IMG/VR virus record: IMGVR_UViG_3300012987_000005
Coordinates: 1 to 24,540 of that record
Direction: 5' to 3' (one strand)
DNA: 24,540 bases
Source: a virus
Taxonomy: Duplodnaviria; Caudoviricetes
A model generated the notes under the pieces. The model had not been told where the DNA came from, did not search any database, and saw nothing but the letters and a program-made list of their open reading frames with translations. The first letter of the stretch is position 1. Every line of letters starts with the position of its first letter. This document shows positions 250 through 21,718 of the stretch, in pieces. The position numbers were made by a program, and so were the translations under genes.

Positions 250-633
250 TTACGCTCCAAGTAGGATCGAGGGGTCTTCAATGGTTCCGTTGGGCAGTCT
301 GACGCGCACGTGCACTCCGTTGCCGAGCCACTCAGCGTTACAAGCGGCCTTGATCTGGCCGGCGCAGTACAGTTCCCACAGGCGGTAAATCACGAGATCG
401 TCGCAGTCTCCCCAGCCGCGTTGAAACGTGACGTTCGGGAGTGCCCAATCCTCGTAGCCAGAGCCATGCCCCGGCTCTTGTCGAAACTTGATGCCGCTCT
501 CATACAGCGGCGGGAGTTGCCACGACCGAGCGAGCGGAACGCAGCCCCGGGCGATGCCTTCGATCGTGCACTTCGCAAAGTGCGCGACCAGGCCGCCCGA
601 GAGCCCGCCCCGCAGCTCGGTCGAGATGATCAA
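250..633 (-). CDS. Transglutaminase-like (papain-fold) Cys-His-Asp enzyme, possible maturation protease
   Basis: GWGDCDDL (Cys), GVHVRV (His), IEDPS (Asp); ATGA overlap with the upstream candidate capsid gene. Confidence 0.75.
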   Translation of the reverse strand: MIISTELRGGLSGGLVAHFAKCTIEGIARGCVPLARSWQLPPLYESGIKFRQEPGHGSGYEDWALPNVTFQRGWGDCDDLVIYRLWELYCAGQIKAACNAEWLGNGVHVRVRLPNGTIEDPSILLGA

Positions 634-1301
634 CGACGGACCGCTGCGCCGAAGAACGCGCCGGAAAACACCTTGTCCACGGCCGTCGGATTCGACACCA
701 CGAACTGCACGCCCGTCGAAGTTTCGATCGTCGGGAACACGATCTGCGGCGCGGTCGAAACCTCGCTAAAAAACTCGATGGGCACACCTTCGCTGGCGTT
801 GAAGATGTTCGTGCCCGCGATGCTGATCTCGTGCAAAAGGAGGCCCTGCACGGTCGACGGTGCGCGGAAGCTCTGCGGTGCCATGGGGCGCTGCGGCTTC
901 TTGTCGATGGTTTGGCGCGCACCGCCCGCGGTGATCGTGGTGCGCCCGATGCCGAACCACGTCACGTCGCCGGCGACGTAGTCCATGGGCGCGTAGTTGA
1001 TCGGCCGCTGGACGCCCTGCGCGGACTCCACCTGCGCGATCGGCGCGCCCGTGTAGTACGGCAGCACGCGCGGATCGCCCGTGTAGTACGGCATCACGCG
1101 CGGATCTCCAACGCTGCCAGCACCGGCGAGCAAGGCGTCGACTTGCTGCGAGAGCCCAGGGTCGCCGACGTGGAACGGCGCGGGCATCTGGATCAGATTG
1201 TCGAGCTGTTGAGCGAGAGTCGCTGGCTCAGCTGCAGCAGCAGGCATCGCAGCGACCAGAGACAGAGCGGGAAGGATCGAGAGCACTTTTGCAGTTTGCA
1301 T
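630..1301 (-). CDS. Candidate major capsid protein (hydrophobic leader, repeat linker, C-terminal beta-sandwich of about 110 aa)
   Basis: Good RBS (GAGGT), second gene of the structural operon, alternating beta-strand pattern in the C-terminal half. The CDS is solid; the capsid role is inferred. Confidence 0.55.
   Translation of the reverse strand: MQTAKVLSILPALSLVAAMPAAAAEPATLAQQLDNLIQMPAPFHVGDPGLSQQVDALLAGAGSVGDPRVMPYYTGDPRVLPYYTGAPIAQVESAQGVQRPINYAPMDYVAGDVTWFGIGRTTITAGGARQTIDKKPQRPMAPQSFRAPSTVQGLLLHEISIAGTNIFNASEGVPIEFFSEVSTAPQIVFPTIETSTGVQFVVSNPTAVDKVFSGAFFGAAVRR
1047..1106. repeat. 30-bp tandem repeat x2 (GDPRV[ML]PYYT)
   Basis: gcccgtgtagtacggca[g/t]cacgcgcggatc at 1047-1076 and 1077-1106, one mismatch. 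Confidence 0.95.
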
Positions 1302-5985: not shown

Positions 5986-7476
5986 CTATGCTCCTTCGAG
6001 GTGTTTTCGGATCACTGCAGACACAATTCGCCGCTCGAGCGACTCCGACCATTCGGAGTCGCGCTTCGCATCGAACTGCGCTCGTAGCTCGTAGTCGGCT
6101 GCCGCGGTCAGCGGCGCCCGTTTGTAGTAGCCCTCGTCATCTAAGACGAAGCCGTTTGGCACGATGATGCCCAACTTCTCTTTGACTTTGCTCTCCTCGA
6201 GCGAGTGCTCGATGTCGACTCGCGCCCAATGTCCGCGCTGGTTTTCGTACAGACAACACGGGCACACGTTCGCCTTCTCAACTGCCCACTTCGCGAAGCC
6301 AGCGCTCGACTGTTTCAGGCGCTTTCCGTCGAGCTGTGCGTAAACCTCCGCGAACACTTCAGGAGCGGCGCGCTTGGCACCGCCCTCTTGGATCTCCCAG
6401 TCCTTCGTTAGGTATTTGATGAGCTCGCGGTCGACGTCGTGATCGGCTTTGCGAACGTCAGGCACGAGCAGCTCGACCGTTTCATCGGGTCCGAGCAGGC
6501 CCATCTTGCGCGCAACCTCGTGATAGGCACGCGTCCAAAGTGGATGCAAAACTTCCTTGTTGTCGATGTAGCGCGAGAACATCCACACGTGCAGATGTGG
6601 GTGACCTAAACCGTCGCCCTTGTTCGGTGTCCACTCGAAGACCAGCAGGTAACTCAACAGATCTGCAATCGGCACGAACTCCGGCGCACTTCCTGGACGT
6701 CCGTTCGGGAAATTGTGGGCCAAGTCGTCGAAGGTGATCGAGCTGAGACCACCGAGCTCGCCCCGCAATCGATCACCGAGCAGGCGCCAAAATCGCGCCC
6801 AGGTCTTGCGGAGTACTTCAATGCGTTCGCTCGCTGAACCACGCGAAGGCAACGTGAACGTGGCGAGGCGTTCTCCCCAACGTTCGCTCTTCTTTTGGTT
6901 GCGACGCGTGTATCCCGCAAGCGTGGCAGCCGTGACCAGCCCGAGCCTCTTTCGATTGAAGTCTTTTCGGAACTTCACCACTTGCTGAGTGCGGCACGTC
7001 GGACAGAACCACTTCGAGCCGCAGCCAACTTCGATCGGCGTCGCGTTCTTGCAGCTTCGACACACGAGAGTGATTTTCGTTCCCTCGGACGAGCCGCATG
7101 CGTCGACACGCTCGAAGAGCTCTCGCTTCGTTTTTGCGCGCGACTCGTGCCAGCGCGTGCATCGCCGGCGCAGCATTAGCTTGCTCGCGCGTTCGGGCTT
7201 CTTGCTCTGCGCAGTCCACTCCGCGCCCAGCTTGTCCGGTACGAACTTCCCCGCGTCGTTCACCAGGCCCAGAGGGGGCAGAACCGTGCCCATGCGCCCC
7301 CAATGAATGCCAGCGGCCGAGCCGTCAGGCTCGGCCGGACCAGACACGGGGCGGCCGCTCAGCTCCGCTCGCTCGACGGTTGACGACCAGACAAACCGAT
7401 CGCGCGCTAGCGCGCGCCCGCGAGACTCCAATTTCCGCGCTGACTGTTCTCTTCCAAGCGCAGTGAGCGCCTTCAT
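5986..7476 (-). CDS. rep: Rolling-circle replication initiator (HUH endonuclease with Zn finger); start uncertain, frame open to 8004
   Basis: CRSC...GCGSKWFCPTC Zn finger, motif I LATFTLP, motif II HPHLHVWM, motif III LIKYLTK; directly upstream of ssb. Confidence 0.88.
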   Translation of the reverse strand: MKALTALGREQSARKLESRGRALARDRFVWSSTVERAELSGRPVSGPAEPDGSAAGIHWGRMGTVLPPLGLVNDAGKFVPDKLGAEWTAQSKKPERASKLMLRRRCTRWHESRAKTKRELFERVDACGSSEGTKITLVCRSCKNATPIEVGCGSKWFCPTCRTQQVVKFRKDFNRKRLGLVTAATLAGYTRRNQKKSERWGERLATFTLPSRGSASERIEVLRKTWARFWRLLGDRLRGELGGLSSITFDDLAHNFPNGRPGSAPEFVPIADLLSYLLVFEWTPNKGDGLGHPHLHVWMFSRYIDNKEVLHPLWTRAYHEVARKMGLLGPDETVELLVPDVRKADHDVDRELIKYLTKDWEIQEGGAKRAAPEVFAEVYAQLDGKRLKQSSAGFAKWAVEKANVCPCCLYENQRGHWARVDIEHSLEESKVKEKLGIIVPNGFVLDDEGYYKRAPLTAAADYELRAQFDAKRDSEWSESLERRIVSAVIRKHLEGA

Positions 7477-7547
7477 GTCGGCCAGCCACTCGGAACGCGG
7501 CGTAAGTATCCGTAATCGCTTCGCCGTTGAGTTATGCCGATCCTCGT

Positions 7548-7602
7548 CCTTAACCCGTTGGGTTAAGGCCTCGGTATCAAGTGAAGGGGGCGCTTCGCGC
7601 CC
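7548..7602 (-). other. Candidate double-strand origin (nick site CTTG^ATA between two hairpins)
   Basis: Minus-strand CTTGATA at 7581-7575; perfect 9-bp inverted repeat 7548-7568 (CCTTAACCC-gtt-GGGTTAAGG); GGGCGC-GAA-GCGCCC at 7602-7588. Confidence 0.75.
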
Positions 7603-7712
7603 GGACGCTTCGCTAATGGCAACGCCGGCAGCCGTTCTGTGGTGGCCCGTCGGCCGAACTTTCGAGCGTGCGACAGATTTCGAACCGGTGGGGGCATACG
7701 AGCCGCGAGAGC

Positions 7713-7928
7713 TCAGGCGAGCCCCCAGGGTAGAACGTCGTTTGCGGGCGCTAACGGGCTGTAGGCGAGCTCCGCGAGCTCGACGCGAATGCAGGAGCGG
7801 CGCAGCTCGGGAGCGCGACGCCTGGGCAAGTGGCGGCAGCGGCCACCCTGTGTGAGGACCAGTCCGGCAAAGAGCAGTCGCCAGCGGGTGTAGGCGTTCC
7901 AGCGCCACCGCACGCGCGGCCGACTCAC
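7713..7928 (-). CDS. Hypothetical basic protein
   Basis: GTGA coupled to the upstream ORF. Confidence 0.4.
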   Translation of the reverse strand: MSRPRVRWRWNAYTRWRLLFAGLVLTQGGRCRHLPRRRAPELRRSCIRVELAELAYSPLAPANDVLPWGLA

Positions 7929-8131
7929 GGGCGCCGCCTACGCGCCGAGCGCAGCAAATCCGGCGGGAGCCGGTCGTACTGGTGCCAGCTGCAGCGCGGG
8001 GCAAATCCGGCGCCGGAACGCACCAGCGCGACGGCTCGCCGATCGCAGCGTGTGCACACGGAGGCCGGCTTCAGCCGCACCCAGCGCTGATCGCGGTGCG
8101 GACCGTGGAACAGCTCGAGCTGGTGCTTCAC
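7925..8131 (-). CDS. Small Zn-finger protein
   Basis: VCTRC...RCSWH; GTGA coupling. Confidence 0.55.
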   Translation of the reverse strand: MKHQLELFHGPHRDQRWVRLKPASVCTRCDRRAVALVRSGAGFAPRCSWHQYDRLPPDLLRSARRRRP

Positions 8132-9905: not shown

Positions 9906-10270
9906 GCCGGCGCAAACTCCACGCGCACGACCAGAGCCACCGGCTCGACGTGGCGATTCAGCACCAGCATTCGCACGCTCGAGCGCGCTGAGACCATTGG
10001 GAACTGCAGGTGCTCGCCACTCAGCCGGCAAAGCTCGATGTTCTTTGTGTACGACTCGGGCTTCAGATCTTCGAACGGCGCCGGCCTAAGCAGCACTTCG
10101 TTATGCTCCATTTGGAGCGACTGAAGCGTGAGCGCTCGAAGCCGCTGACTGTAGAACGCGACCGCGCGCACTCGGGCCAGCGGGAAGCGAGGCACGACTT
10201 CGTGAAACAACAGCACGCCCGGTGCTGCAATCAGTCCGTGAGGCGCGTTGTTCAGTTCGCCTCCGTTCAC
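9902..10270 (-). CDS. Beta-rich protein, apparent remote paralog of the candidate capsid domain
   Basis: LQFPMVSARSSVRMLVLN aligns by eye with IVFPTIETSTGVQFVVSN of 630..1301. Confidence 0.55.
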   Translation of the reverse strand: MNGGELNNAPHGLIAAPGVLLFHEVVPRFPLARVRAVAFYSQRLRALTLQSLQMEHNEVLLRPAPFEDLKPESYTKNIELCRLSGEHLQFPMVSARSSVRMLVLNRHVEPVALVVRVEFAPA

Positions 10271-11067
10271 TGGCAGCCCCCAACGAGCTCGAGCACCGAC
10301 CACCAATTGCCACTCGGAGTGACGATCACGATGCGCGCCGAGCTCGCGGACGTCGGCTGCTCGAGCACCAGGTCAAGTACTCCGGGCGCCGGCGTCGACG
10401 TCGTCTGCGCAACCGAGGCACCGTCGAGCTCGAGCTCGAGCTCGAGCGGCATGTCACCAGGGACGGAACGGAGCTCGAGTCGGTCGAGCGTTGTCGGCTT
10501 GCCGAGCTCGAGGGCAATCCACTGCCCCGCCGCTTGGGGCTCGCCGCTGGACCAGCGCGTTCCTGGATCGCCGTCTAGCATGGCCTCCGGAGGCTCATTG
10601 GGCCGAGCAGCAAACGCCGAAACTCGCCAGCCAGCGCGTGAGCAAACAGCAGCAGGAAGCGAGCCTCCCTCGCCGCCATGGTCAGAGCTCGAGCCCGCCG
10701 CCGAGCTCGAGCCCGCTGCCGAGCTCGAGCCGGCAGTGCTCGACGGCGTTCCGCCGGCGCCGGCGCCGGCGACATCGTTACCCGTGCCAGCTTCGTCCGC
10801 GCCAGCTTCGCCGGCGGCTGCAACCAGTGCTTCCTCATGCGAGATAAACTTCGGGCCACACCCGCAAAGCAGGTGTGACAGTGCACCCGCGACGATGACG
10901 ACAAGAACGAAGAACAACGCGCGTTCGATGGCGATCTGCGCTCGCGTGGGCATCGAAGAACCGCAGCGCATGCAGTAGGACGACACACACGAGGCGTCTT
11001 TTGAACGACCACTGCAGATCGAGCACGCCGCCTGCGGCCCGTCGTAACCGCAGTTGCGGCAGTTCAC
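10267..11067 (-). CDS. Membrane or lipoprotein with Gly/Ser linker and F5/8 type C (discoidin/CBM32) domain
   Basis: TM ALFFVLVVIVAGALSHLLCGC; AMLDGDPGTRWSSGEPQAAGQWIALELG is a typical discoidin motif. Start GTG 11067 (coupled) or ATG 10953. Confidence 0.8.
   Translation of the reverse strand: MNCRNCGYDGPQAACSICSGRSKDASCVSSYCMRCGSSMPTRAQIAIERALFFVLVVIVAGALSHLLCGCGPKFISHEEALVAAAGEAGADEAGTGNDVAGAGAGGTPSSTAGSSSAAGSSSAAGSSSDHGGEGGSLPAAVCSRAGWRVSAFAARPNEPPEAMLDGDPGTRWSSGEPQAAGQWIALELGKPTTLDRLELRSVPGDMPLELELELDGASVAQTTSTPAPGVLDLVLEQPTSASSARIVIVTPSGNWWSVLELVGGCQ
10685..10736. repeat. 18-bp tandem repeat, about 3 copies (AGSSSA linker)
   Basis: gagctcgagcccgc[c/t]gcc repeated. Confidence 0.85.
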
Positions 11068-11249
11068 GACGCCACCGCCGCGGCTTCGGTACAAAGGTGG
11101 CAGTCGAGCACTTGCGCGCCCGAATTGGCCTCGACGCACTGATTGCCGTGCCTGCAGTGATGTGCGGCCAGGCCGCCCGCTTCCTTGATGCTGACCTCGC
11201 GCCCGCACGCTGGGCAGACGGTGCGCGGCTTCTTGTAAAACTTGGTCAC
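11064..11249 (-). CDS. Small Zn-finger protein
   Basis: VCPACGREV...HHC...C...CHLC; GTGA coupling. Confidence 0.6.
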   Translation of the reverse strand: MTKFYKKPRTVCPACGREVSIKEAGGLAAHHCRHGNQCVEANSGAQVLDCHLCTEAAAVAS

Positions 11250-11545
11250 CGGCAACTCCGTTTCTTCGGCGCTGCCACGGCAGCGACAACAGCCTGAGTC
11301 AGTTGGCGAGCAATTGGAGCTGGACGGTGCGCGCGCTTGTCGCGAACCCACCAGCGTCCGTTTGAGCACGCGATGACGTCTTGGTCGCGCAGCGCACGGA
11401 GCGCGTCATCAATGTCAGCTCCGTTCATGGCGAGCCGCTGCGGAACGTTGCGCACGACCACCGAGTGCGTTGGAGAGTTCGCGATCTCCTGCAGGAGCCA
11501 GTTTGTAAACTGCTCGAGCTTCGAGCTCTGCGCGCTCACGACCAC
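11246..11545 (-). CDS. Possible winged-helix DNA-binding protein
   Basis: VPQRLAMNGADIDDALRALRDQDVIACSNGRWWV resembles a wHTH recognition helix plus wing. Confidence 0.5.
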   Translation of the reverse strand: MVVSAQSSKLEQFTNWLLQEIANSPTHSVVVRNVPQRLAMNGADIDDALRALRDQDVIACSNGRWWVRDKRAHRPAPIARQLTQAVVAAVAAPKKRSCR

Positions 11546-13187: not shown

Positions 13188-13757
13188 TCACACTGCCCCC
13201 GTGAGAAGCGGTTCAATCGAGAAAAAGGCCGTCACGGCCGAACGCGCCGCGCTCGAGCGCGTGACAGCGCCGCCGGCGCCGTTGCCGTTGACCAGCTGTA
13301 CCGCAGTCGGCGTCACGCTCTCGACGACGGCCATGTGTTGGTTGTGATCGAAGTAGGCCATATCCCCCGGCTTCGGCGACTGCGTGATCGGGAGCGACTG
13401 GTGCTTGTCCGACAGGGCGAAGCCGGCTTCGATCTCCCAAAACCAGTCCAGGGCAAGCCCCGCCTGGTGCAAGCACCACAGCGCGAACGCGCCGCACCAG
13501 TCGGCGCCGGCGGGGTCCTTGCCCGGCAGCACGTCGTCCCAATAGATCTGGGGGTTCGTGTTGCCGAGCTGGCTCACCGCGGCCGCGACAACGGCTGCGC
13601 GCCCCGTGAGCGGCTGCGCCGGCACCCTGGTGTCAGGTCGCGGCACGACGCCCCCGGCGGGCGCGTGCGACGTTGCACGGGAGCTCCCACCGACCATCAG
13701 CGCGACGAGCCCGCCGAGAATGGGCAGAGCGAGCAGCCAGGCCTTGCTGCGCATCAA
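13188..13757 (-). CDS. CHAP-domain peptidoglycan hydrolase with N-terminal TM or signal segment
   Basis: DWCGAFALWC, PKPGDMAYF, HMAVVESV, VNGN. Confidence 0.88.
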   Translation of the reverse strand: MMRSKAWLLALPILGGLVALMVGGSSRATSHAPAGGVVPRPDTRVPAQPLTGRAAVVAAAVSQLGNTNPQIYWDDVLPGKDPAGADWCGAFALWCLHQAGLALDWFWEIEAGFALSDKHQSLPITQSPKPGDMAYFDHNQHMAVVESVTPTAVQLVNGNGAGGAVTRSSAARSAVTAFFSIEPLLTGAV

Positions 13758-18698: not shown

Positions 18699-19259
18699 TC
18701 AACCCTTTCGCCTGCGTGAAACCAATAAAAGACCAGCACCGACCATCACGATCGCAAGCGCGACACCGACGCCGCTCGCAGCGCTCTTGAGCGCTTCGCC
18801 GGCGTCGGTCGCTGCTCCACCAAGCGAGTCTGGCCGCGGCGCGTTCGTGATCGGATTGCTCGCGCTCGGTGCCCACACGTCGTCGAGCAAGTACTCGTCA
18901 TCATGCGGCCAAGGCGTGAACGCCTGCGCGCCTCGGTTGAAGAACCTCACAATGAACGGCTTCGCTGGTTCCCCGAGCATCAAAGCATTGTCGCGCGACG
19001 CGGCGAGCTCCAGCCCGTCGTGAGTCGGGATAATCTCAACTTGCGCCCCTTTCAGCGCCGCCGGGTTGAGTGGATCGGCTACTGCAGCGCCGGGCGCAGC
19101 ACTCGCCACGTCCTCTACCCAAATGCGGAGCCGGCGCTCGTGCGACAACCCTAGGTTCATCGGGTTCAGATCGCCGAGATCATCCACTTGCCACACGGTC
19201 CAGACGTTCCAACCAGGGAACACTGGCGCGAAGCCCGGCGGGATCTGAACCGCAGTCAC
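18699..19259 (-). CDS. C-terminally anchored membrane protein
   Basis: Ends GVGVALAIVMVGAGLLLVSRRRKG. Confidence 0.75.
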   Translation of the reverse strand: MTAVQIPPGFAPVFPGWNVWTVWQVDDLGDLNPMNLGLSHERRLRIWVEDVASAAPGAAVADPLNPAALKGAQVEIIPTHDGLELAASRDNALMLGEPAKPFIVRFFNRGAQAFTPWPHDDEYLLDDVWAPSASNPITNAPRPDSLGGAATDAGEALKSAASGVGVALAIVMVGAGLLLVSRRRKG

Positions 19260-19260
19260 G

Positions 19261-19362
19261 TTACTTCTTCTCCGAAGCCGACGCCGGCGCCGTCATCAGC
19301 GCGATCGCGCCACTGACGAGGAGTCCGACGATAAGCCAGGTTGGGGTGCGTCGCTTCGACAT
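19261..19362 (-). CDS. 33-aa membrane peptide (not in the ORF track)
   Basis: MSKRRTPTWLIVGLLVSGAIALMTAPASASEKK*, RBS GGTGAGG, fills the gap between neighbours. Confidence 0.75.
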   Translation of the reverse strand: MSKRRTPTWLIVGLLVSGAIALMTAPASASEKK

Positions 19363-19366
19363 CGCC

Positions 19367-19735
19367 TCACCGGTGAATCAGCTGTTGAATGTACGGGGAC
19401 GCGAACTCCCAGATCACCACGAGTGCGCCGACCAGCGCGCCCATGCGATTCGAGGTGTGCCGCGCGGCCGACTTCGAAGCGTCCGCCACGAGCTCGCCGC
19501 GCTGCTCTTTGAGCGTCTTTCCGTGCTGACTGACCTCGCGGCTCAAGGTTCCAAACTGCACAGTCAGCGCGTTGACCGCAGCGGTGTTCGCTTGCGTCGC
19601 GCGCATCACCATGCCGAGGTCGACGAGCTCCGGAGATGCTTCTTTTTCTGGCGGCACAGTGTCCACCGGCCGAAGCTTCGGCACACTGCCGTGCCGCTTC
19701 GTGATCTCTTCGTTCTTATCGAACCCACGCACCAT
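19367..19735 (-). CDS. Coiled-coil protein with C-terminal TM helix (holin or XhlA-like candidate)
   Basis: TGATG coupled to the lysin; MGALVGALVVIWEFASPYI. Confidence 0.6.
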   Translation of the reverse strand: MVRGFDKNEEITKRHGSVPKLRPVDTVPPEKEASPELVDLGMVMRATQANTAAVNALTVQFGTLSREVSQHGKTLKEQRGELVADASKSAARHTSNRMGALVGALVVIWEFASPYIQQLIHR

Positions 19736-20847
19736 CAGGAATCCTCCTTCAGCAATCGCTTGATCGAAAACCACGCGAGCGCCGGGTCATCACGCCGGCG
19801 CGTGCGACGCTGGATCGGCCGCGGCTCCCCTTGGTTGCCCTCGATCGTCGTCACCGTGTTGTTGTCCACGGCCTCGACGATGAAGTGGTGCTGATAGGGC
19901 TGATCCTGGTAGCCCATATCGCCGCGGCGCAGCTCGTCCTCTGGCTTCACGCGCTGCAGCGCGTACAAGAACCCAGAGCGCTTATCGCTCGCCGTCTGAA
20001 AACGCCAGAACAGCGAGGGAGCCAGCGCCGCATCATGGAGGCAAAAGAGCGCGAGCGCGCCGCACCAGGCCGGCGGGTGAGGCAGATTCGGCGCCTGGTG
20101 CAGGGCGCTCGCCCAGTAGTCATTAACCCGTGAGGGTGTGAACGCGCCAGACTCGACGAGCGCGAGCTCACGGCTGGCAACCAACACGACGGCATCTCGC
20201 GCGAGCATGCTAACGATGCCGCCGACGTGCGCGCCATAGGAGCCAGCCGACAACGGCGGCGGAGCCGAGCGCAAGGACGGGAGCTCCACTGGCGGTTGGC
20301 TTTTTTTTTGCGCCTGGAACAACAACCGTGGCCGCGCGGTCGCTTGCGCGACCCGCGTCTCGATCTTTTGCGTCACATCGCCGACAGTCAGCGTGCCGTC
20401 GCCGTCCGCGTCCAGACCCGAGTTCTGATCGTAAATCTGCTCCCCCTTGGTCGCCAAAATGAAGTCTTTCGGCTTCCCCACGAACGCGGGCAGGAAGGTG
20501 GCCATGTAGTAGTCACCCGGCTCCTCCCTGCGAATCGCTCGCCCCGCCTGCCGATAGAACGCCTCAACAAATGGCAGCTGCTCGATCGCCGTCATCTGCG
20601 CGAGCGCGCTCGACGAAGTGCCCAACGCGGTCGCCGTCGCCGGCATGAATTGGATCAACCCAACCGCGCCACCATTCGCGTTTCGGGCGCTCGGATTGAA
20701 CCCCGACTCAAGCGACATCACCGCGCCGATGTAGTTGGGGTCTAGCCCTAGCCGGTCCGCCACCGCCTGCAGGGCAGTCGCAAACCCTGGCTCGAGCGCT
20801 TCACGAGCGCTCAAGCCAGGTAGATCGAGGTAGGTCAGCGTTGCCAT
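19735..20847 (-). CDS. Lytic transglycosylase (SLT-like) plus CHAP fusion in the zero frame; CHAP could also start at ATG 20208
   Basis: LESGFNPSARN...AVGLIQFMPATA; AWCGALALFC, GDMGY, HHFIVE, TIEGN. Confidence 0.85.
   Translation of the reverse strand: MATLTYLDLPGLSAREALEPGFATALQAVADRLGLDPNYIGAVMSLESGFNPSARNANGGAVGLIQFMPATATALGTSSSALAQMTAIEQLPFVEAFYRQAGRAIRREEPGDYYMATFLPAFVGKPKDFILATKGEQIYDQNSGLDADGDGTLTVGDVTQKIETRVAQATARPRLLFQAQKKSQPPVELPSLRSAPPPLSAGSYGAHVGGIVSMLARDAVVLVASRELALVESGAFTPSRVNDYWASALHQAPNLPHPPAWCGALALFCLHDAALAPSLFWRFQTASDKRSGFLYALQRVKPEDELRRGDMGYQDQPYQHHFIVEAVDNNTVTTIEGNQGEPRPIQRRTRRRDDPALAWFSIKRLLKEDS
20301..20309 (-). other. A9 slippery run between the SLT and CHAP domains
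   Basis: CAA AAA AAA AGC; the -1 frame reads KPTASGAPVLALGSAAVVGWLLWRARRRHR* (TAG 20212-20210). Confidence 0.7.
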
Positions 20848-21017
20848 CGTCAGTGTTGTCAACTTCGAGAGTGGCGCCGCTCGCGCGGCGGAGAGAGAGC
20901 AGCAACAAGGGGAACTGTTTGCGCGGCGGGTGAACCGCTGATCCGAAGCAAACGACCGTCAGGGCGTCGAGGAGCGTCCTCACGGCAGAGGCTGGCTGCC
21001 TCCGGCGGGGACGCGCC

Positions 21018-21380
21018 TTATGAAGGCGCGGGAGGGGGCGCCCCGCCGTCTGCGAGGTTGGCGCAAAGCCGATCTTCCGTCGCTTGCACACGCGCCCGAA
21101 TCGAGTCCGGTGGTGGCTGCAGCTTTGGGTCGAGCTGGAGCACGGCTCGCTCGAGTGCACGCAGCCCGCACAGGTCTGTTGCGATCTTTGCGGTCTGCGC
21201 GGGTGTCGGCGGCGGTGCTGAGCAGCTCGAGAGAACGGACAGCGCCGCGACCGCGCACGACCCAGCGAACCATGCGAGCGTCAACATCACCACCGGGTGT
21301 CGGCTCTCTCGCCGCACGCACAGCCAATACATGAAGCACACGAAAAGCATCGCGAGAAAGGTCACGATCACCGCGTTCAT
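21018..21380 (-). CDS. Two-TM protein with lipobox-like LSSC (lysis accessory candidate)
   Basis: AVIVTFLAMLFVCFMYWLCV; VVMLTLAWFAGSCAVAALSVLSSC. Confidence 0.65.
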   Translation of the reverse strand: MNAVIVTFLAMLFVCFMYWLCVRRESRHPVVMLTLAWFAGSCAVAALSVLSSCSAPPPTPAQTAKIATDLCGLRALERAVLQLDPKLQPPPDSIRARVQATEDRLCANLADGGAPPPAPS

Positions 21381-21718
21381 CGGCCGGCCTTCCGTGCACG
21401 CGCAGCTTTCGCGCGACCCTTGGCCATGCGCTCGAGAAACTCTTTCTTACTGACCTTCTTTTTGGCCTTCTTCTTACGCGCTGGCGCCTTCTTTTTGGCT
21501 TTCTTCTTAGCTGCCTTGCGCTTCTTGCGGATCGGCTGCCCGAAGACGGCCATGTGCAGCTCGGCGCGCTTGCGCTCGAGCTCGGAGAGCCGTTGCGACG
21601 GCGTCTTCTTGCGCGCCTTCGTTTTGGCCTTTTTCTTGGCGGCCTTTTTCTTGGCGGCCTTTTTCTTCGGCTTGGCCGCGACTGCCCGTTCGAGTTTTTT
21701 TAGCAAACTACCGCTCAT
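21377..21718 (-). CDS. Histone H1-like Lys/Ala-rich DNA-condensing protein
   Basis: KKKAAKKKAAKKKAK repeats throughout. Confidence 0.8.
   Translation of the reverse strand: MSGSLLKKLERAVAAKPKKKAAKKKAAKKKAKTKARKKTPSQRLSELERKRAELHMAVFGQPIRKKRKAAKKKAKKKAPARKKKAKKKVSKKEFLERMAKGRAKAARARKAGR

Follow-up and report, generated by a model that had tools for sequence, protein, structure and literature searches.

A single lytic transglycosylase gene of a virus-like genome from soil very probably gives rise to two proteins, as judged from the conservation of two reading frames behind a run of adenosines. The window, i.e. the whole stretch of 24,540 nucleotides that was analysed (IMG/VR record IMGVR_UViG_3300012987_000005), represents a complete circular genome of 24.4 kb with a 123-nt direct terminal repeat and 65% GC, and its candidate genes are carried on the minus strand. 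The explanation that best accounts for the locus as a whole, and that we hold with moderate confidence, is an A-run slippage switch between a soluble SLT-CHAP fusion and a membrane-anchored SLT. According to this model, RNA polymerase would slip on the A9 run and add one A in some transcripts. The unslipped mRNA would be translated into the 370-aa soluble fusion, an endolysin acting together with the adjacent holin-like gene; the minority of mRNAs with A10 would encode SLT with an anchor at its C terminus (212 aa), a protein that would reside in the virion lipid membrane and cut peptidoglycan at entry in the manner of PRD1 P7. The same protein would result from a -1 ribosomal shift at A_AAA_AAA, which may contribute to its yield; both routes, polymerase and ribosome, may operate, with polymerase slippage somewhat favoured as the main one.

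Nine homopolymers of at least 6 occur in the window; the run, at 9, stands alone, the second longest being 7, and the original prediction that CAA AAA AAA AGC, located after the SLT domain, is the longest thus holds across the whole genome. Its reading of the two frames is borne out as well: the zero frame passes from ATG 20847 through a linker into CHAP and ends at TGA 19735 after 370 aa, and, beyond the run, the -1 frame spells KPTASGAPVLALGSAAVVGWLLWRARRRHR-stop, a predicted transmembrane helix with a basic tail. Because the -1 frame of the window contains no ATG, GTG or TTG upstream and no ATG before the helix, it would be reached by a shift, and it follows from the sequence that the identical 212-aa protein, SLT plus anchor, results from either the addition of one A or a -1 shift at A_AAA_AAA. 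Lysine is encoded 151 times by AAG versus 64 times by AAA in the window genome, and AAA-AAA accounts for 2 of the 24 Lys-Lys pairs in 20 window genes; given this codon use, the A9 run is more than a chance occurrence. A downstream stem formed by GUGGAGCU and GGCUCCGC, which had also been pointed out earlier, does form in the MFE fold, yet not more strongly than in shuffled sequences (z -1.0 and -1.5). No internal Shine-Dalgarno sequence was found within 40 nt 5' of the run in the window.

Table 1. Features of the window that bear on the proposed switch and on the virus type (positions of the whole stretch).
Feature	Position	Strand	Basis
Candidate single jelly-roll capsid protein, 223 aa: C-terminal jelly-roll-like sandwich, N-terminal GDP..Y repeats	630-1301	-	predicted fold
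Large protein weakly matching Rep_1 and the IS91 zinc domain; weak HUH Rep-type matches at 5986-8004	5986-7908	-	Pfam
Next gene: overlaps the fusion stop (TGATG), GGAGG upstream, C-terminal hydrophobic segment	19367..19735	-	sequence
Frame-0 product: SLT, Pro/Ser-rich linker, CHAP (370 aa)	19735..20847	-	Pfam, aligned fusions
CHAP part with its own ATG, one base past the -1 stop	19735..20208	-	sequence
-1 frame: 30 codons, hydrophobic helix and Arg-rich tail, then TAG 20212-20210	20210..20302	-	translation; homologous anchors
Possible downstream stem	20259..20289	-	MFE fold
Putative A9 slippage site, CAA AAA AAA AGC on the minus strand (T9 on the plus strand)	20301..20309	-	sequence
SLT lytic transglycosylase domain, common to both products	20332..20847	-	PF01464 E 1e-9

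The frame-0 product, for which no transmembrane helix is predicted at the junction, is predicted to be a soluble endolysin. Its SLT domain matches the lytic transglycosidase in PDB entry 9udh (E 2e-35) and its CHAP part matches PF05257 weakly (E 0.04); the Glu of the SLES motif of SLT and the WCG and HH motifs of CHAP are invariant in all 16 aligned fusions. The in-frame ATG at 20208, noted earlier as lying one base past the -1 stop, is indeed there in the window, but a CHAP Met at this place is not universal: it occurs in 11 of 16 fusions, and the relative L150 has no in-frame start ahead of the CHAP core. CHAP alone is a possible third product, made by re-initiation at 20208, in the window but not in general. 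The adjacent downstream gene has a weak holin match (PHROG 1356, E 0.043), and the gene order at this place is shared by the relatives L001 and L152. When queried alone, the CHAP part had no relative in viral contigs, and no cultured phage covering 80% of the fusion was present among 239 matching records. A second CHAP gene with an N-terminal hydrophobic helix lies at 13188-13754 on the minus strand of the window (Pfam E 1e-8), and in L152 a gene similar to it sits directly before the SLT gene.

L001 and L002 encode an SLT that is 65% identical to that of the window, in a syntenic genome. In all four close relatives with DNA (L001, L150, L151 and L152), A9-10 followed by G is found at the same place, and the -1 frame encodes an IFWATLR-type anchor with a basic tail; in L001, a stop in the -1 frame directly precedes the run. 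Conservation does not extend to the +1 frame past the run, in either the close relatives or the surveyed SLT regions. Frame 0 continues into CHAP in the window, L001, L150 and L151, and in L152 it ends after 40 codons, with CHAP as a separate gene two genes on. When the relatives were inspected for loss of the run or of either product, the run and the -1 anchor were found to be kept, and the soil clade keeps an open frame 0 into CHAP. The claim that one locus yields anchored and fusion products by slippage or frameshifting is thus supported by the joint conservation of the run and of both frames. What is conserved, however, is the choice between anchored and soluble SLT, whereas the CHAP fusion is a local add-on, as frame 0 ends in L152 and in the Bacteroidota loci.

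Two surveys provide a wider view of runs in SLT genes. In the first, scans of viral, metagenome and genome sequences yielded 204 distinct SLT 3' regions. A run of at least 9 is present in 13 of them; a -1 helix accompanies 12 of these runs, that of the window included, but not the thirteenth (L214), and is found in 0 of 4 regions with A7-8 runs. The second drew on 401 genomes each around Runella and around a Bacteroidales genome, among which an SLT gene in 16 and 17 genomes, respectively, gave 50 distinct regions; a -1 hydrophobic segment is present in 14/14 of those with a run of 9 or more. Three of these 14 loci had already been counted in the first survey, and the total is 23 loci, window included. 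Many run-bearing loci are Bacteroidota proviruses, two of them in cultured Runella strains, R. limosa DSM 17973 and R. defluvii DSM 17976 (L218 and L226, with A10); three Bacteroidota run loci adjoin phage integrases, many neighbour genes end in hydrophobic segments, and frame 0 stops 1-7 codons past the run, leaving a bare soluble SLT. The 23 runs are A9 (13 loci), A10 (nine) or T9 (one, L388, near position 2017), occupy codon phases 0, 1 and 2 in 3, 12 and 8 cases, and are followed by G in 21. As a background, 40 other runs of 9 or more occur in 310 kb, a chance of ~1.4% per 210-nt interval, and 11 of these 40 are followed by a hydrophobic stretch, counting any of the three frames. In a tree of 84 SLT cores (midpoint root, chosen rows), in-frame anchors need at least seven changes on well-supported branches and nest within run-bearing clades; the anchor switch has likely been gained or lost several times.

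At the protein level, 13 further full-length SLT-CHAP fusions were found. A set of 148 homologues comprises 68 with an in-frame anchor, 27 with a Lys motif and a Pro/Ser-rich stretch, 32 with x-P-L/K, four others and 17 unclassed, and overlaps with the DNA set, in that L150 and L152 apparently encode P0014 and P0028. Many SLT homologues have an in-frame anchor and no run, and the anchored form is the version that is kept where the switch is absent. All 27 Lys motifs could be encoded by A9, and no Lys-Lys motif was found that could not. Codon position 2 is the wobble position of the -1 frame, and residues with G or C at this position make up 0.78 of the Lys-motif linkers versus 0.47 of the SLT cores, and 0.75 of the x-P-L/K linkers versus 0.42 of the cores, a composition that would be the trace expected of a hidden -1 coding frame. 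The x-P-L/K class (P0005, P0040, P0044-P0059 and others), which is judged by linker composition alone as the motif pattern often caught an earlier P-L, has a linker resembling the hidden -1 anchor, in many cases followed by a peptidoglycan-binding domain; it is possibly a ribosomal version of the switch, which at the protein level would fit C_CCU_UUR or C_CCA_AAR. Two pattern scans for DNA of this class returned 48 and 6 loci, with SLT in 0 of 54, and a DNA scan with P0065 returned one weak unrelated match. P0023 and P0030 carry the Lys motif, the linker and a CHAP-like part behind a different N-terminal domain, which suggests that the anchor/CHAP cassette is portable.

Alternatively, programmed -1 ribosomal frameshifting on A_AAA_AAA, with the help of a 3' hairpin, could be the main source of the same two products, a route that we consider rather unlikely to be the principal one. 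Any A9 contains an in-frame A_AAA_AAA, and the heptamer is found in frame at all A-run sites; loci L357-L359 make do with A6-8 and A_AAA_AAC and still have the -1 helix, and the 32 x-P-L/K proteins with their similar Pro/Ser linker would suit a ribosomal mechanism. The sequence 3' of the run folds modestly more strongly than controls (mean z -0.98 versus -0.06, p 0.001) and than that at in-frame anchors (mean z -0.22, p 0.012), with p values that are optimistic given that the loci are related, and L001 has a 13-pair hairpin directly after the run (z -3.9). Yet A6-7 in one phase would do for the ribosome, and 23 of the 26 loci with a -1 anchor keep 9-10 bases, in three codon phases and once as T9; this points to selection on length, not phase, and favours the polymerase. 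In addition, only 2 of 23 loci have A_AAA_AAG, a strongly shift-prone heptamer, in frame, the stem of the window is not significant, and the 3' folding z lies below -2 in 5 of 23 loci and above it in 18. Short GGAG/GAGG-type matches are present 5' of the site in 5 of 13 loci at varying distance. An upstream hairpin as a stimulator of slippage is unsupported in the 23 loci (mean z -0.01).

DNA-level phase variation, with A9 and A10 genomes in the virus population and one product from each, would draw on the high mutability of homopolymers, and L400 (A8 with the anchor in +1, near position 2010) does differ from its paralogue L391 (A9) within one genome; L214 (near position 10466) even has the reversed polarity, with the anchor in frame 0 behind A9 and stops in both other frames. 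Both states would then be expected, yet the anchor lies in the -1 frame at 23 loci and in frame behind a long run at L214 only, and 0 of 22 other in-frame-anchor genes, a list that does not contain L214, have a run of 9 or more; moreover, the virus would likely need both enzymes in one cycle, and phase variation is accordingly judged quite improbable. The idea that the run is incidental, with the hydrophobic frame belonging to an independent small membrane gene or being a relic, earns about as little credit: an ATG between run and helix exists in 5 of 23 loci (L177, L188, L221, L383 and L384), but the other 18, including the window and all soil loci, lack one, and none has an upstream start in the anchor frame. 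Against this very unlikely reading speak the homology between the -1 segment and the anchors that P0035-38, P0041 and P0060 carry in frame, and the wobble GC of the -1 frame, which is 0.86-0.91 in three soil loci. Finally, the true run could be A10 and the locus two ordinary genes, homopolymers being error-prone and ATG 20208 a conceivable start of a separate CHAP gene. A contig from run X1, possibly the source sample, covers 20055-20699 with 0 differences and 0 gaps and reads A9, not the A10 that had been named as the mark of an assembly error; at a depth of 4.9, and with contigs hiding rare alleles, this contig shows only that a second assembly agrees. The relatives refute an error, the probability of which is close to nil: 22 other loci show an identical offset, as do 13 additional fusion proteins drawn from several sources, and CHAP has no start in L150.

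To enter a cell, a phage needs a wall hydrolase carried in the virion; to leave it, a soluble one. Under the favoured slippage switch, a division of labour between an anchored entry enzyme and a soluble lysis enzyme is likely, by analogy with PRD1 P7 and P15. PRD1 P7 and Toil gp23 are virion-borne and combine a lysozyme-like domain at the N terminus with a C-terminal anchor (available text of PMC6750898 and PMC5773508), and a second gene supplies the endolysin in Jorvik (Slt/M15) and PRD1 (available text of PMC10589892). The predicted -1 product resembles P7 and gp23 in its domain layout, with N-terminal SLT and a C-terminal anchor, and as in PRD1 and Jorvik a second, soluble lysin would be needed beside the anchored entry enzyme. 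As far as these excerpts describe PRD1 gene VII, the anchor is retained in both of its products, P7 and P14, the latter consisting of nothing else, and the endolysin P15 comes from another gene; in the window, unlike in PRD1, the catalytic domain would be shared and the anchor optional. Where the studied membrane-containing phages use two genes, one appears to serve both ends here, with a fixed ratio set by the slippery run. The anchored form is missed by gene callers, so that such genes are annotated as plain soluble lysins or odd fusions.

Productive polymerase slippage on 9 or more A/T is described for Thermus thermophilus dnaX, Citrobacter tssM1 (A11, 20-25% slippage) and Yersinia tssM3 (A9, active) in the available text of PMC5009743 and PMC4256274, and -1 ribosomal frameshifts for phage lambda G/GT and E. 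coli dnaX (A_AAA_AAG) in that of PMC5009743. The window shares with T. thermophilus dnaX, tssM1 and tssM3 a 9-10-base A/T run within the gene, at which an extra A would create a second C-terminus and two length variants. In those chromosomal genes, which serve replication or secretion, slippage has been demonstrated experimentally, whereas the window has a viral cell-wall hydrolase to which putative slippage would add an anchor. Lambda G/GT and E. coli dnaX likewise obtain two products in a set ratio from one gene; unlike the -1 frameshifts described for phage tail and capsid genes in these excerpts, however, the present sites have a long run in varying phase, mostly without A_AAA_AAG. A further parallel is the Ebolavirus glycoprotein, of which the unedited mRNA gives a soluble protein and one extra A the membrane-anchored virion form. 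The logic is all that is shared, as that case involves an animal RNA virus, a viral polymerase and an unrelated protein; the available text of PMC5009743 mentions no more than realignment in Ebola viruses.

While slippage and frameshifting are known mechanisms, their use in this switch appears to be new: a literature search in a mostly open-access library, covering listings and excerpts of PMC5009743 and PMC5894146, returned no description of it. If correct, the model would mean that bacterial viruses put transcriptional slippage to productive, conserved use. More tentatively, tailless lipid-containing viruses ranging from rolling-circle viruses of soil to proviruses of Bacteroidota may form a large, as yet undescribed set that would make entry and exit enzymes from one gene via host polymerase slippage. 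Its switch would have come and gone repeatedly, would be exchangeable for ribosomal heptamers (A_AAA_AAC, possibly C_CCU_UUR or C_CCA_AAR), and would have a soluble arm that takes CHAP, a peptidoglycan-binding domain or nothing. The A9, A10, T9 and A6C site variants offer a natural series to tell polymerase slippage from ribosomal frameshifting.

The gene set of the window fits a tailless, membrane-containing virus, with a presumed membrane in the virion. No head-tail capsid or terminase gene was matched in Pfam or PHROG among 32 window ORFs, and several window proteins have terminal hydrophobic helices. The large Rep_1-like protein is likely a rolling-circle initiator, and its gene is followed by an SSB gene. 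A linear genome with inverted terminal repeats and a protein-primed polymerase, as in Tectiviridae, is not what the window contains (no inverted repeat of 8 or more), and the genome type is not that of a tectivirus. A canonical Walker A motif is absent from a six-frame scan of the window genome; the FLiP and Odin groups likewise have no FtsK/HerA-type packaging ATPase according to the available text of PMC5894146. The capsid candidate is conserved (45 homologues) and predicted to fold as one beta-sandwich, and its structural matches to HHIV-2 (Z 7.3, rmsd 7.2, 112 aligned), HCIV-1 (Z 7.0, rmsd 3.3, 108 aligned), SPV1 (Z 6.8, rmsd 3.1, 110 aligned) and P23-77 VP17 (Z 6.7, rmsd 4.4, 112 aligned) are all below the tool's bar of 8, and a cellular GOLD domain scores above all of these viral jelly-roll proteins (Z 7.5). 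Foldseek gave no match for it at E 0.001, and an Atlas comparison led to unnamed viral clusters only.

As to the host, a MYXO-CTERM match in the window (E 0.096) is too weak to be indicative, and no sigma-70 promoter-like site was found in window positions 19000-21500. A very Lys/Ala-rich histone-like protein, possibly a DNA-condensing protein, is encoded at 21377-21718 (-) and has a counterpart at the same place in L001. In the ORF at 10267-11289 (-), whose true start is likely internal, a probable lipoprotein-like segment and a Ser/Ala/Gly linker lead up to a terminal F5/8 type C carbohydrate-binding domain. Among the Bacteroidota loci, L177, L218, L225, L226 and L214 are unannotated proviruses that encode many small proteins with membrane anchors; a Walker A-like motif occurs in L218 (4038-4670), and a 242-aa protein of L177 (4411-5139) gives a weak 0.78 Atlas lead to the P2/P3 double jelly-roll capsid families.
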